Positions 9,337 to 11,012 of a DNA stretch of 64,000 nt are shown piece by piece. The DNA is taken from positions 12,818 through 76,817 of the forward strand of contig CAVOWZ010000005.1 of assembly GCA_963700275.1 (NCBI GenBank), written 5' to 3'. The position numbers were made by a program, and so were the translations under genes. Position 1 is the first letter of the stretch. Every line of letters starts with the position of its first letter. The notes beneath the pieces were generated by a model, which saw only the letters and a program-made list of their open reading frames with translations, was not told the origin of the DNA and searched no databases. This stretch comes from an uncultured Bacteroidales bacterium. GTDB taxonomy: Bacteria; Bacteroidota; Bacteroidia; Bacteroidales; VadinHA17.

Positions 9337-10803
9337 TCAGAGTGATTCCCCGAAATCTTTCTTATAAGCTTCAGCAAGCTTTTCGGGCCAGTTGCTTACT
9401 GCTTCAAGCCGGCCTGTAAAGAACCTGAGAACCGGTGGTTCCTCAACGAACTTAAGACCTTCAACAAGTTTCCTGTTCTGATACAGCCAGTCAAGCCTGT
9501 CAAGAGTATATTCTACCTGGGAAAGCGTAAAAACTCTCCTGGGTACTGCAAGCCTTAACAGCTCAAGATCAGCAAAAATGTCGTTCCCGTTTTCATCACG
9601 GTTACTGCTTATGGTTCCCCTTTCCATTCCTCTGATCCCTGAAACAATATATAATGCCGCTACAAGTGATCCTGCGATGTATTGTGATTGTGGGATGTGT
9701 GAAAGGAACTGAGTTGCATCAATATGACAACCCAGGGCGCCGCCGGGGCTTACGACGGGTATATCAAGTTTTTCAAGTTCCTGCACCATGTAATTTATGA
9801 AAGCGGGAGACTGTCCCACAACATTTTCATCGACAGTTTCAAGCAAGCCTTGTGCCATCGCTTCAATCTCACGGATTGAGATCCCACCGTATGTCAGAAA
9901 TCCTTCATAAAGGGGGACAAGATATTTCATTTTTGTCCAAAGTTCTGTAGAATTTGTACAGATTGCTCCTCCTTTAGATGAGCTGACCTTTCTTCCGGAG
10001 AAGTAAACAATATCTGCAAGATCACACATCTGCAGAAGGATTGACTCGAGTGACTGGTTTTCAAAACCCGGTTCCCTCTTCATGATGAAGTATGCATTTT
10101 CTCCTATCAGGCTGGCATCCAAAACTATTATCAGGTTATATTTATCTGCTATCTTTCTCACTTCCTTGAAATTGCCAAGTGAGAATGGCTGACCGCCGAT
10201 AAGATTGGTTGAGGCTTCCATCCTGATGAATGGAACATTCTGCGGACCTGAATCGATAATTACTTTTTCTAGTTGAACCGGATCGATATTACCTTTGAAA
10301 GGGTGGGAACTTTTAATTTTCATTGCTTCGGGCGCAAAGAGCTCAAAGATCTTTCCGCCGTTAAGTTCAATATGTGCACGGGTGGTAGTGAAATGATAAT
10401 TCATCGGAATCACAGATCCTTCCTTAATGAACGTTTTCGAAATAATATTTTCAGCTGCTCTTCCCTGATGCACGGGAAGAACATATTTCTTACCGAATAC
10501 CTGCAGTACACTTTTTTCGAATTTCTTGAAGCTCATCGAGCCTGCATAGGCATCGTCGGCCACAAACATCTTTGAGAGCTGGATATCGCTCATCGCATTG
10601 GTCCCGCTGTCCGTCAGCATATCAAGGAATACATCACCGCTACTTAGCAGGAAGGAATTAAACCCGGCATCCTTCATGGCAGCCAGCCTTTGTTCCACAG
10701 GCAGGAGGTTAAGGGATTGTACTATCCGCACTTTATGCATCTCGAGTGGGATCTGTTTTCTGGTAAAGAATTTTACCGTTCCGTTTTTCTGAATTTCATC
10801 CAT
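9337..10803 (-). CDS. tpl: Tyrosine phenol-lyase-like beta-eliminating lyase (divergent)
   Basis: [35 protein letters not shown]-type specificity residues: HFTTTR (T124), GMERG (R381), LRFFT (F448). The PLP-lysine region is atypical (SGRKVSSSKGG). Confidence 0.75.
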   Translation of the reverse strand: MDEIQKNGTVKFFTRKQIPLEMHKVRIVQSLNLLPVEQRLAAMKDAGFNSFLLSSGDVFLDMLTDSGTNAMSDIQLSKMFVADDAYAGSMSFKKFEKSVLQVFGKKYVLPVHQGRAAENIISKTFIKEGSVIPMNYHFTTTRAHIELNGGKIFELFAPEAMKIKSSHPFKGNIDPVQLEKVIIDSGPQNVPFIRMEASTNLIGGQPFSLGNFKEVRKIADKYNLIIVLDASLIGENAYFIMKREPGFENQSLESILLQMCDLADIVYFSGRKVSSSKGGAICTNSTELWTKMKYLVPLYEGFLTYGGISIREIEAMAQGLLETVDENVVGQSPAFINYMVQELEKLDIPVVSPGGALGCHIDATQFLSHIPQSQYIAGSLVAALYIVSGIRGMERGTISSNRDENGNDIFADLELLRLAVPRRVFTLSQVEYTLDRLDWLYQNRKLVEGLKFVEEPPVLRFFTGRLEAVSNWPEKLAEAYKKDFGESL

Positions 10804-10823
10804 ATTTTATTTGTTATAATATT

Positions 10824-10858
10824 AAAAAAAAAGGCTCACCTTATTCCCGGCAAGCCTT
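10824..10858 (-). terminator. Intrinsic terminator (attenuator) in the tpl leader
   Basis: Minus strand: AAGGCTTGCC-GGGAATAA-GGTGAGCCTT followed by a U-run, ending ~20 nt before the ATG. Confidence 0.85.
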
Positions 10859-10880
10859 ATGTTCATGAATTTATGGTTTG

Positions 10881-10964
10881 TCACACATATTTCACAGGAC
10901 TGCCTGACCTGTACCAGCAATAATAACAATAATAGATTCCAATATTTAATTTTATTATCGTCAT
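10881..10964 (-). CDS. Tyr-rich leader peptide (27 aa, MTIIKLNIGIYYCYYCWYRSGSPVKYV)
   Basis: Hand translation shows 5 Tyr codons within 8 codons. It lies between a consensus promoter and the terminator and is absent from the ORF track. Confidence 0.8.
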   Translation of the reverse strand: MTIIKLNIGIYYCYYCWYRSGSPVKYV

Positions 10965-10981
10965 TACTTAAAATTTGAATC

Positions 10982-11012
10982 CAAACGTAATTTATTTTCA
11001 GATAAAATCAAA
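10982..11012 (-). promoter_or_regulatory. Bacteroidota sigma-A promoter for leader-tpl
   Basis: Minus strand TTTG (11012-11009), 19-nt spacer, TACGTTTG (10989-10982), matching the TTTG-N19-21-TAnnTTTG consensus. Confidence 0.75.

Follow-up and report, generated by a model that had tools for sequence, protein, structure and literature searches.

The window, by which we mean the whole analysed stretch of 64,000 nucleotides from an uncultured Bacteroidales bacterium, carries on its minus strand a gene for a PLP-dependent beta-eliminating lyase and, 5' of it, a leader with a short upstream open reading frame (uORF) and an intrinsic terminator (Table 1). Every leader element described in the first-pass annotation was confirmed at the same position on that strand. 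The lyase lies head-to-head with a cluster coding for an aminotransferase, a 2-oxoacid:ferredoxin oxidoreductase, a PaaK-like ligase and an ACT protein. An M14 peptidase gene lies 3' of the lyase, an arrangement common to genome G030 and not seen in G004. Across the best 80 lyase loci, the largest cluster of conserved neighbours occurs at 5 of the 80 and consists of unrelated housekeeping genes, and no gene related to phenol or to transport is conserved next to the lyase. Contigs from two RNA-library runs cover part of the lyase coding sequence in short pieces (X20, 10053-10237, 1 difference), a weak hint of transcription that cannot show ends, strand or level; none of the contigs from these runs reaches the leader, which carries no weight either way.

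Table 1. Positions of the lyase gene and of its leader elements in the window
Feature	Position	Strand	Basis
TTTG, putative -33 element of a Bacteroidetes-type promoter	11009..11012	-	sequence read
TAcgTTTG, putative -7 promoter element	10982..10989	-	sequence read
Leader uORF, 27 codons and stop, MTIIKLNIGIYYCYYCWYRSGSPVKYV	10881..10964	-	ORF translation
Regulatory codon block, codons 11-18, Tyr Tyr Cys Tyr Tyr Cys Trp Tyr	10911..10934	-	
Segment 1, ACAGG; able to form a weak anti-antiterminator with CCUGU of segment 2	10908..10912	-	
Segment 2, GGCAGUCCUGU, antiterminator 5' strand, complementary to the terminator 5' arm	10894..10904	-	
GGCAGTCCT	10904..10896	-	sequence read
CCTGT	10898..10894	-	sequence read
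Segment 3, terminator 5' arm, AAGGCUUGCC	10849..10858	-	
AGGCTTGCC	10857..10849	-	sequence read
Segment 4, terminator 3' arm, GGUGAGCCUU, and U9 run	10824..10840	-	
Terminator hairpin, 10 pairs including G-U, 8-nt loop	10858..10831	-	
T-run of the terminator	10832..10824	-	
Lyase ORF, 488 aa, PLP-dependent beta-eliminating lyase	9337..10803	-	

Anatomy and conservation of the leader

The leader had been annotated as starting with a consensus promoter. No sigma-70 match is listed at 11012..10982, and the claim holds instead for a putative promoter of the Bacteroidetes type, in which TTTG and TAcgTTTG are spaced by 19 nt. TAnnTTTG is found 31-47 nt 5' of the Tyr run in 30/30 related leaders, with TTTG a further 19-21 nt 5' in 19/30; the pattern is presumably the Bacteroidetes promoter consensus. 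The uORF MTIIKLNIGIYYCYYCWYRSGSPVKYV, present with its YYCYYCWY motif as first described, has 27 codons, among them 6 for Tyr, 2 for Cys and 1 for Trp; an 8-codon run contains 5 of those for Tyr. No Shine-Dalgarno sequence for the leader is evident in the sequence. The 10-bp hairpin and U-run that had been noticed 5' of the lyase ATG have the form of an intrinsic terminator, with a hairpin energy of -15.4 kcal/mol.

The fold of the leader is more stable than chance (z = -2.74). The same leader is present on separate metagenome contigs (X1 record 2, 10453-11036, 2 differences), which support it independently at this locus. A scan of the 4.9-Mb assembly G000 gave no other convincing uORF that combines a Tyr run with a terminator. 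Five other Tyr candidates were inspected, out of nine in all from the scan of that assembly, and were rejected as coding regions or frame artefacts (one, for example, really reads MKLIIITLTT).

A covariance model of the leader (R1) gives one strong match (E <= 7e-5) in each of 44 of the 121 genomes of the genus. The best 30 of these 44 matches all lie directly 5' of a lyase orthologue (69-100% identity), and the uORFs at all 30 loci have 3-9 Tyr codons, so that the conservation of Tyr-rich uORFs on which the initial reading depended is borne out. A Tyr-rich uORF with a terminator stands at 12 of 18 orthologue loci in the first genome sample and at 9 of the best 80 loci from named genome records, where all nine are among the 12 closest and one (L038) has only 2 Tyr codons. 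Runs of Tyr codons (3-9) are kept in orthologous leaders and the remainder of the peptide varies: three or more unrelated peptide types (MGILKLNIGIYYY.., MNINHYRHNYYYC.., MLNKIKPTNYNYRYYYYC..) have the Tyr run alone in common. Cys codons often stand beside that run, as in YYCYYC and YYCCYYC. The conserved GGUAAGUCC block, complementary to the terminator 5' arm, is read as G-K-S, V-S-P or V-S-R, contains the stop codon in L006 and lies 3' of the stop codon, outside the uORF, in L009. Because the block is kept in different reading frames or outside the uORF, its constraint appears to act at the RNA level.

The leader is confined to one genus: no counterpart was found at orthologues of Marinilabiliales, Alistipes, Rikenella, Akkermansia, Kiritimatiellae and beta-proteobacteria, and no Rfam cis-regulatory element was found 5' of 20 distant lyase orthologues. 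Inside the genus, three lyase orthologues (L004, L005 and L015) have no leader. A terminator is kept with no Tyr run at four loci (L004, L031, L037 and L042). Altogether, the resemblance of the leader to an attenuator is not due to chance, as shown by the z-score, the uniqueness in the assembly and the conservation across species.

Predicted folds and the attenuation model

A hairpin of -10 to -19 kcal/mol followed by a U run occurs in 21 of 21 leaders. This terminator is the RNAalifold consensus structure of the leaders, and 96.8% of its cells pair, compared with 15-66% with a slid partner; for the antiterminator the figures are 85.2% across the 21 leaders and 22-49%. A test of both stems for covariation had been suggested. 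Their pairing is conserved, but covariation is weak: in the terminator, one pair has changes on both sides and 39/500 shuffles score as high, and in the antiterminator, formal covariation counts are no better than shuffles. RNAalifold did not recover the antiterminator from leader RNAs cut before the terminator 3' arm. At arm position 5 of the antiterminator, A is always opposite U (12/12), and G is opposite C in 5 leaders and opposite U in 3. The energy of the antiterminator duplex is below the shuffle mean in 19/21 leaders, with at most 5 of 300 shuffles as low in 13/21; in L009 and L039 the complementarity is no better than chance.

Ribosome-state folds were modelled with an assumed footprint of 12 nt. 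With the ribosome on any of the first four Tyr codons, the predicted minimum-energy fold of the leader is the antiterminator at -14.7 kcal/mol, including the GTGA/TCAT extension that had been proposed by eye. The terminator 5' arm is predicted to be held with the ribosome on a mid-run Tyr codon in 20/21 leaders, and with the ribosome at the stop codon in 2/21, leaving it free in 19/21. When the upstream part was shuffled, the G+C-rich arm still found at least 6 partners in 1168/2100 folds, so the 20/21 result for the stalled state is only moderately informative. The stop codon lies just 5' of, within or 3' of segment 2 in every leader. An ACAGG/CCTGT hairpin had also been suggested to sequester segment 2. 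The pairing can form, and many relatives have a GCAGG/CCUG counterpart, but it does not win in ribosome-free folds; since the antiterminator is still predicted in most leaders without a ribosome, the segment 1:2 hairpin is weak. Sequence and comparison together show the parts of the leader, their conservation, the single-copy link to the lyase and the predicted alternative folds.

In the proposed mechanism, transcription would start a few bases 3' of TAcgTTTG, and the 27-codon uORF would be translated at once. When Tyr-tRNA is plentiful, the ribosome would reach the UGA at 10883-10881 and cover GGCAGUCCU (10904-10896), so that the hairpin and its U9 run could form and transcription would end before the lyase. 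When Tyr-tRNA is scarce, the ribosome would stall on Tyr codons 11-15 and leave GGCAGUCCU free to pair with AGGCUUGCC, the terminator 5' arm; no terminator would then form, and the lyase would be transcribed. The leader has the features of a trpL/pheL-type attenuator, namely a putatively translated Tyr-codon uORF, an intrinsic terminator and, in the model folds, the stall/stop geometry. The first-pass annotation had assigned it to this type, and the Tyr run of the uORF, the terminator and the stop-codon geometry are indeed conserved; its claim of read-through on stalling at Tyr codons agrees with the logic predicted by the ribosome-state folds. Derepression of the lyase on shortage of Tyr-tRNA is a well-supported prediction, although the response itself is one that we infer. 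We lean modestly towards the reading that the leader is a ribosome-mediated attenuator sensing charged tRNA-Tyr, that it controls a monocistronic TPL-like PLP lyase, and that the making of tyrosine would be its purpose.

Textbook members of the TPL/TnaA family are catabolic and substrate-induced. In leader-peptide attenuators, codon content and geometry report when the cell wants the gene product, and by these marks a member of the TPL/TnaA family is apparently wanted here when tyrosine is short.

The lyase and its family

The lyase scores above the cut-offs of Pfam PF01212 Beta_elim_lyase (155.7 vs 27) and of the NCBIfam subfamily NF009709 (569.3 vs 285). It scores below those of the TPL equivalog TIGR02618 (433.8 vs 720.7, with orthologues at 438-475) and of the tryptophanase equivalogs TIGR02617 (339.5 vs 825.8) and NF053783 (390.3 vs 750). 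It is a member of a third clade beside TPL and TnaA, below the NCBIfam cut-offs for both. Among solved structures, its best matches are TPLs (E 6e-114 to 1e-110). Alignment to Citrobacter freundii TPL chains finds F36, T49, Y71, F123/T124, N185, D214, K257, M379-E-R381, R404 and F448/F449 kept. Y71, T124, K257, R381 and F448/F449, which we take to be phenol-ring-binding and catalytic residues, vary little or not at all among 17 orthologues. On the cofactor side, L232 stands for R217 of TPL and R271 for K256, and both are likewise invariant in 17 orthologues. The lyase has FTT and MERG, compared with the TnaA-type FDT and VSEVG in a paralogue of G030. In other relatives, the uORF that accompanies the TnaA-like paralogue is of another type and has a conserved peptide motif. 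The gene had been annotated as a tyrosine phenol-lyase. The specificity residues are of the TPL type, as this would require, but the equivalog score and the replacement of R217 and K256 stand against it, and for these reasons the name is not established.

Rival readings, possible tyrosine synthesis and known systems

Among the rival readings, the one that survives best, although we consider it unlikely, accepts a real attenuator that senses Tyr-tRNA and denies that the lyase makes tyrosine. Tyrosine shortage would then serve as a sign of amino-acid starvation, controlling a catabolic or scavenging enzyme that breaks serine, cysteine or S-substituted cysteines down to pyruvate and ammonium, or acts on a tyrosine-like substrate. 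Enzymes of the TPL/TnaA family are described as performing alpha,beta-elimination on a number of beta-substituted amino acids (PMC10170061). The cofactor surroundings unlike those of TPL, the score below the TPL equivalog cut-off and the frequent Cys codons in the leaders are consistent with such a role. However, residues that bind the phenol ring and hydroxyl are kept (T124, R381, F448/F449, F36 and M379), and pure Tyr runs, which reach 9 codons, point to a specific rather than a general signal. To degrade tyrosine or its relatives during a shortage of tyrosine would also seem counter-productive.

Distinctly less probable is an inverted logic, in which an ordinary catabolic TPL is made when tyrosine is plentiful, because stalling at Tyr codons would lead to termination and smooth translation to read-through. 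Such control would resemble that of characterised tpl genes, which are tyrosine-induced via TyrR (PMC10170061, PMC1173090), and the weak covariation of the antiterminator leaves it some room. Against it, the stalled folds tie up the terminator 5' arm and the stop-state folds free it in nearly all leaders, and the position of the stop codon near or in segment 2 is the classical geometry. Leaders of the same build also stand, in relatives within the genus, 5' of biosynthetic genes: ilvD (uORF MRISLIHIIALILIIVQST), a pheA-aminotransferase-tyrA-DAHP synthase operon (uORF MKITQNYNTSYFYFFFYFKKE) and a trp gene (uORF MKKGNLYNWWWRSS). The uORF of the TnaA-like paralogue, with its conserved peptide motif, is of another kind. 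That the uORF encodes a functional small peptide (for example, a Tyr/Cys-rich precursor of a modified peptide), or that the leader is a small RNA, with the hairpin just a terminator and no attenuation, is very improbable: one leader subgroup does keep the N-terminal part '(I/L)KLNI(G/S)IYY', but the peptide types are otherwise unrelated, their C-terminal parts vary in frame and length while the RNA block stays conserved, the conserved neighbours include no modifying enzyme or exporter, and the element is directly 5' of the lyase at every one of the best 30 R1 loci.

Under control by a Tyr-tRNA-sensing attenuator, a reversible TPL-type enzyme made only at low tyrosine would run towards tyrosine, from phenol, pyruvate and ammonium, or from phenol and serine or cysteine by beta-replacement. 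It may thus provide a salvage route that adds to the tyrA pathway in anoxic sediments and digesters. An anabolic phenol-to-tyrosine role can be coherently inferred in this way. A bolder version, which we put forward tentatively and expect may well prove wrong, makes the clade a dedicated tyrosine synthase that condenses environmental phenol with pyruvate and ammonium, or with serine, by analogy with indole salvage by TrpB. In this Bacteroidales genus, it would have joined the aromatic biosynthetic regulon when a pure-tyrosine leader newly arose, with Leu for R217 and Arg for K256 as adaptations to synthesis. If that version were true, a TPL/TnaA-family enzyme would for the first time be seen to work anabolically in nature, and leader-peptide attenuators would gain their first tyrosine-specific example.

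The distribution of tyrA counts against an anabolic role, as the gene is present in most lyase carriers (11/15, within 33/36 sampled genomes of the genus). It was not found in the carriers G000, G005, G017 and G028, the last of which is 94% complete. G000 has chorismate synthase, while no part of the trp-pheA-tyrA block known from relatives finds a match there; since this assembly is 80% complete, the absence of tyrA is not separable from an assembly gap. Classical TPL is described in PMC10170061 as physiologically degradative, with Km values in the millimolar range (phenol 1.1 mM, pyruvate 12 mM, NH3 20 mM).

The closest known systems are the E. coli leaders trpL, pheL and hisL, in which a uORF with a codon run is followed by mutually exclusive antiterminator and terminator, and segment 2 is masked by a ribosome that terminates translation (PMC11802643 summarises how trpL and pheL work). 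The lyase leader differs from these in the predicted sensing of tyrosine alone, in its target, a lone lyase gene from a family with known catabolic roles rather than a biosynthetic operon, and in its weak segment 1:2 hairpin, Bacteroidetes-type promoter and lack of an evident Shine-Dalgarno sequence. The leader was not assigned to a known Rfam family. RF01692 Bacteroid-trp, from the same phylum and of the same overall build, is the only one that aligns over the whole leader (10849-10984, model 1-131 of 131), at 25.2 bits, below the gathering threshold of 49 (E = 9.2), and the lyase leader differs from it in having Tyr instead of Trp codons and another downstream gene. The aroR leader of Corynebacterium glutamicum (Phe-Tyr-Phe, 5' of aroF) also places a Tyr codon in a leader that controls an aromatic-pathway gene by stalling, but it answers Phe limitation and Tyr availability is without effect, according to PMC11802643. 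It has a single Tyr codon, compared with 3-9 in the lyase leaders, and its target is a DAHP synthase.

Among relatives of the enzyme, TPL of Citrobacter freundii and Erwinia herbicola has specificity and catalytic residues in common with the lyase. In E. coli, TnaC is likewise a uORF 5' of a gene of this enzyme family, and its conserved arrest peptide senses free tryptophan and blocks Rho, giving induction by the substrate. The lyase leader, by contrast, has an intrinsic terminator, and its peptide is variable apart from the conserved run of Tyr codons. The predicted response is also opposite in sign to that of classical tpl, for which PMC10170061 gives a 32-fold activation by TyrR and tyrosine in a reporter, and repression by glucose. 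A literature search on TPL with attenuation or a tyrosine leader found no paper, most subscription journals and supplements lying outside it; to this extent the first impression that the system had not been described before still stands.

Fermentation commonly yields phenol in anoxic sediments and digesters, where it is also a common pollutant. If the tyrosine-sensing reading is borne out, a tyrosine-specific leader would join the known set (Trp, Phe, His, Leu, Thr and Ile/Val), and an uncharacterised, widely distributed third lyase clade would gain a testable function. Caution would then be due in counting every metagenomic TPL/TnaA homologue as a producer of phenol or indole, and abundant uncultured Bacteroidales may build salvaged phenol directly into their protein.

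Tyr-rich leader upstream of the lyase gene

The lyase gene is preceded by two promoter-like elements, a short upstream frame (uORF) rich in Tyr codons and a terminator hairpin, and all coordinates in the first-pass annotation were confirmed against the window sequence. The terminator hairpin by itself has an energy of -15.4 kcal/mol, and the 176-nt leader folds with z = -2.74, only 1 of 200 shuffles folding as well. We take the TTTG and TAcgTTTG elements to match the Bacteroidetes -33/-7 promoter consensus. At 11012-10982, first described as a consensus promoter, a sigma-70 scan listed no promoter. 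TAnnTTTG is present 31-47 nt 5' of the Tyr run in 30/30 related leaders. The same leader and gene occur on independent metagenome contigs (X1 record 2, 10453-11036, 2 differences; X3 record 24), and the stretch is found in freshwater and sediment metagenomes from several studies.

Features read from the sequence of the window, and leaders of other genes in related genomes
Feature	Position	Strand	Remarks
TTTG promoter element	11012-11009	minus	19 nt before TAcgTTTG
TAcgTTTG promoter element	10989-10982	minus	
uORF	ATG at 10964, stop 10883-10881	minus	27 codons, MTIIKLNIGIYYCYYCWYRSGSPVKYV
Terminator hairpin	10858-10831, then nine U to 10824	minus	AAGGCUUGCC / GGUGAGCCUU
Lyase ORF	10803-9337	minus	488 aa
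Second (TnaA-like) lyase	about 21507-22841	minus	split
Other leaders, relatives	L117:5767-5883, L118:5792-5909, L117:11451-11596; L151-L156		Phe/Tyr (pheA-tyrA), Trp, Ile/Leu/Val (ilvD)

Among 61 genomes from the genus and order of the window, 17 clear lyase orthologues (54-91% identity) and a separate paralogue set (35-41%) were found. With the window's own locus counted, 12 of 18 orthologue loci carry a uORF rich in Tyr and, after it, the terminator 'aaggcttacc...ggtaagccttttt'; five have neither. One locus (L004) keeps the terminator, with a uORF of just 12 codons and 2 Tyr (MSIYYIINLSI) ending at the terminator's foot. Named genome records were compared as well. Of their 80 best-matching loci (62-77% identity), nine have the leader (L032-L036, L038-L041), all from uncultured Bacteroidales and within the 12 closest loci; the Tyr run of L038 has only 2 codons, and three further loci among the closest have the terminator without a Tyr run. 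It was absent from the remaining named-record loci, including those of Anaerophaga, Natronoflexus, Alistipes, Rikenella, Akkermansia, Kiritimatiellae and beta-proteobacterial MAGs. Close orthologues at L004, L031, L037 and L042 retain promoter motif and terminator and have lost the Tyr run. In some species the leader is apparently evolving or decaying.

A covariance model built from 21 leaders gave a single strong match (E <= 7e-5) per genome in 44 of 121 genomes of the genus. The best 30 matches all lie directly upstream of a lyase orthologue (69-100% identity) and their uORFs hold 3-9 Tyr (e.g. MDLVKLNISIYYYYYYYYYRIHT); the Tyr-rich uORF proposed from the window alone is kept at these loci. 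Six of the 12 weak matches (38-42 bits) were inspected and are ilvD leaders, with uORFs rich in Ile/Leu/Val. No second convincing Tyr-run uORF with a terminator was found in a scan of the window's own assembly (G000).

Predicted folding of the leader around a stalled ribosome

The uORF peptides are of at least three unrelated types, the Tyr run being their sole common feature. A block complementary to the terminator's 5' arm, GGUAAGUCC (GGCAGUCC in the window), is conserved 3' of this run. Because its reading frame differs among leaders (G-K-S, V-S-P, V-S-R), and the stop codon falls inside it in L006 and before it in L009, the block is conserved at the RNA level. Stalled-state folds of each leader began 12 nt beyond the Tyr codon in the A site and ended one base short of the 3' arm; they paired the 5' arm to the block for some or all of the Tyr codons in 21/21 leaders. 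The same pairing was predicted with the ribosome on a mid-run Tyr codon in 20/21; a ribosome placed on the stop codon, which is within reach of the block in every leader, left the arm with at least six upstream partners in just 2/21. The antiterminator pairing first proposed for the window is its predicted stalled-state fold (-14.7 kcal/mol), and the ACAGG/CCUGU hairpin suggested to sequester the block does not win in ribosome-free folds. As modelled, the leader geometry is of the trpL/pheL type, in which stalling would give read-through.

Evidence for the terminator is solid: 96.8% of cells pair, compared with 15-66% when the partner is slid, and it is the RNAalifold consensus structure. Support for the antiterminator comes mainly from conserved complementarity, with 85.2% of cells pairing (22-49% with the partner slid) and duplex energy under the shuffle mean in 19/21 leaders. 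One arm position varies consistently, A meeting U in 12/12 leaders and G meeting C in five and U in three. For the stem covariation named as a check in the first-pass annotation, the antiterminator measures are not above shuffles; the leaders all come from one genus, so that little sequence variation is at hand. Given RNAs truncated ahead of the 3' arm, RNAalifold did not recover the antiterminator helix, complementarity of block to arm is not in excess in L009 and L039, and the G+C-rich arm still gains at least six partners in 1168 of 2100 folds with shuffled upstream sequence.

The enzyme, its paralogues and its surroundings

The lyase passes Pfam Beta_elim_lyase and, within NCBIfam, the broad subfamily alone (569 vs a cut-off of 285), failing the tyrosine phenol-lyase (TPL) equivalog (433.8 vs 720.7) and both tryptophanase (TnaA) equivalogs (339.5 vs 825.8; 390.3 vs 750). 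Its closest solved structures are TPLs (E about 1e-114 to 1e-110), and tryptophanases rank behind. Relative to C. freundii TPL, F36, T49, S51, Y71, Q98-G-R100, F123/T124, N185, D214, K257, Y291, M379-E-R381, R404 and F448/F449 are kept; R217 is replaced by Leu232 and K256 by Arg271, the loop that follows the Lys is changed, and the replacements do not vary among 17 orthologues. The initial assignment as a TPL agrees with the specificity residues but not with the equivalog cut-off or the R217 and K256 positions. The gene thus belongs to a third clade, in which the substrate pocket resembles that of TPL and the cofactor side is altered.

The paralogue in a related genome, G030, comes near the Porphyromonas-type TnaA model (698.5 vs 750) and carries FDT and VSEVG in place of the lyase's FTT and MERG. 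At TnaA-like paralogue loci L021, L022, L025 and L027-L030, a uORF with conserved N[IL]K[NKE]RD (e.g. MSLYIITVQPVDDIYRNIKNRDFFFATE) was observed, that is, in 7 of 9 assessable loci, 31-125 nt before the gene; the motif was not found upstream of the G030 paralogue or the window's broken TnaA-like copy. That a peptide and not a codon run is conserved suggests that tryptophanase in Bacteroidota may have an arrest peptide like TnaC.

The lyase is monocistronic in a second relative, G004, and is followed by an M14 peptidase gene in G000 and G030. Divergent from it in G030 and G004 is a cluster for an ADP-forming acyl-CoA synthetase, an ACT-pair protein, a PaaK-like ligase, an aminotransferase and a three-subunit 2-oxoacid:ferredoxin oxidoreductase, an aryl- or branched 2-oxoacid cluster that could work in either direction. 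Over 80 loci of the wider clade, conservation of any neighbour extends to five loci at most. Between positions 11282 and 22841 of the window, many frameshifts and stops interrupt the genes of this cluster and the second lyase, all of them intact in G030 and G004. The X1 and X3 contigs are without many of the window's single-base insertions, and substitutions are dense from 11299 on. This segment is probably poor-quality or chimeric assembly rather than true gene decay; the leader and lyase region (9286-11300) is clean.

Directly 3' of the lyase stop, a G+C-rich palindromic element of about 80 nt (9230-9310) is a dispersed intergenic repeat, with 18 BLAST matches in G000 (its own copy, five of at least 74 nt and 12 shorter partial ones) and many metagenome contigs stacking on it; it may serve as the lyase terminator. 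Elsewhere, a possible sensory hydrogenase-kinase of 653 aa is encoded at 978-2939 (plus strand), with an [FeFe]-hydrogenase large-subunit-like domain, Fe-S motifs and a histidine kinase (HisKA and HATPase_c); after it come a response-regulator/kinase hybrid and a Rex-like protein.

Tyrosine supply and related attenuators

The predicted derepression of the lyase on Tyr-tRNA shortage is well supported and very likely. A reversible TPL-type enzyme made only at low cellular tyrosine would presumably run towards tyrosine, and its repression at plentiful tyrosine would spare tyrosine and prevent phenol release. The main points against such an anabolic role are these: tyrA is found in most lyase carriers (11/15, and 33/36 sampled genomes of the genus), classical TPL has millimolar Km values according to excerpts of one paper (PMC10170061), and the leader is absent outside the genus. 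The four carriers without detected tyrA have assemblies 70-94% complete (G028 at 94%). Prephenate dehydratase and prephenate dehydrogenase were not found in G000, G005 and G028, where chorismate synthase is present, and in G000 no part of the relatives' trp-pheA-tyrA block could be matched. The missing terminal branches may be either an assembly gap or a real loss; since the assemblies are incomplete and the whole block is missing in G000, nothing is concluded from these four carriers.

Characterised tpl genes are activated by TyrR and tyrosine and described as degradative in excerpts of two papers (PMC10170061; PMC1173090). The nearest leader with Tyr codons found in the literature, again from excerpts, is C. 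glutamicum aroR (Phe-Tyr-Phe), reported as unresponsive to tyrosine (PMC11802643). Tyrosine genes were described as T-box controlled, not attenuator controlled, in the excerpted text of an older comparative paper (PMC1262725), and tyrosine, tryptophanase and Bacteroidetes are all absent from one survey of attenuators (PMC2965389). No paper on a tyrosine leader or attenuated TPL was found in full-text searches outside subscription journals and supplements, in agreement with the earlier view that the system is undescribed. The attenuation itself follows a classical mechanism; what is new is which amino acid is sensed and what type of gene is controlled.

Other biosynthetic genes in G030 and G004 have leaders of the same build. 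The pheA-aminotransferase-tyrA-DAHP synthase operon has a mixed Phe/Tyr uORF (MKITQNYNTSYFYFFFYFKKE or MNIVYNYFISFYFFFYFKKR) and a sub-threshold match to Rfam Phe_leader (37 vs 55 bits), and a trp gene is preceded by the uORF MKKGNLYNWWWRSS. The Phe/Tyr, Trp and ilvD leaders all score below or near Rfam thresholds, and this Bacteroidales attenuator family is poorly represented in Rfam. Together, the ilvD, pheA-tyrA and trp leaders show that attenuators of this build serve biosynthetic genes in the lineage, and the lyase leader belongs to that set.
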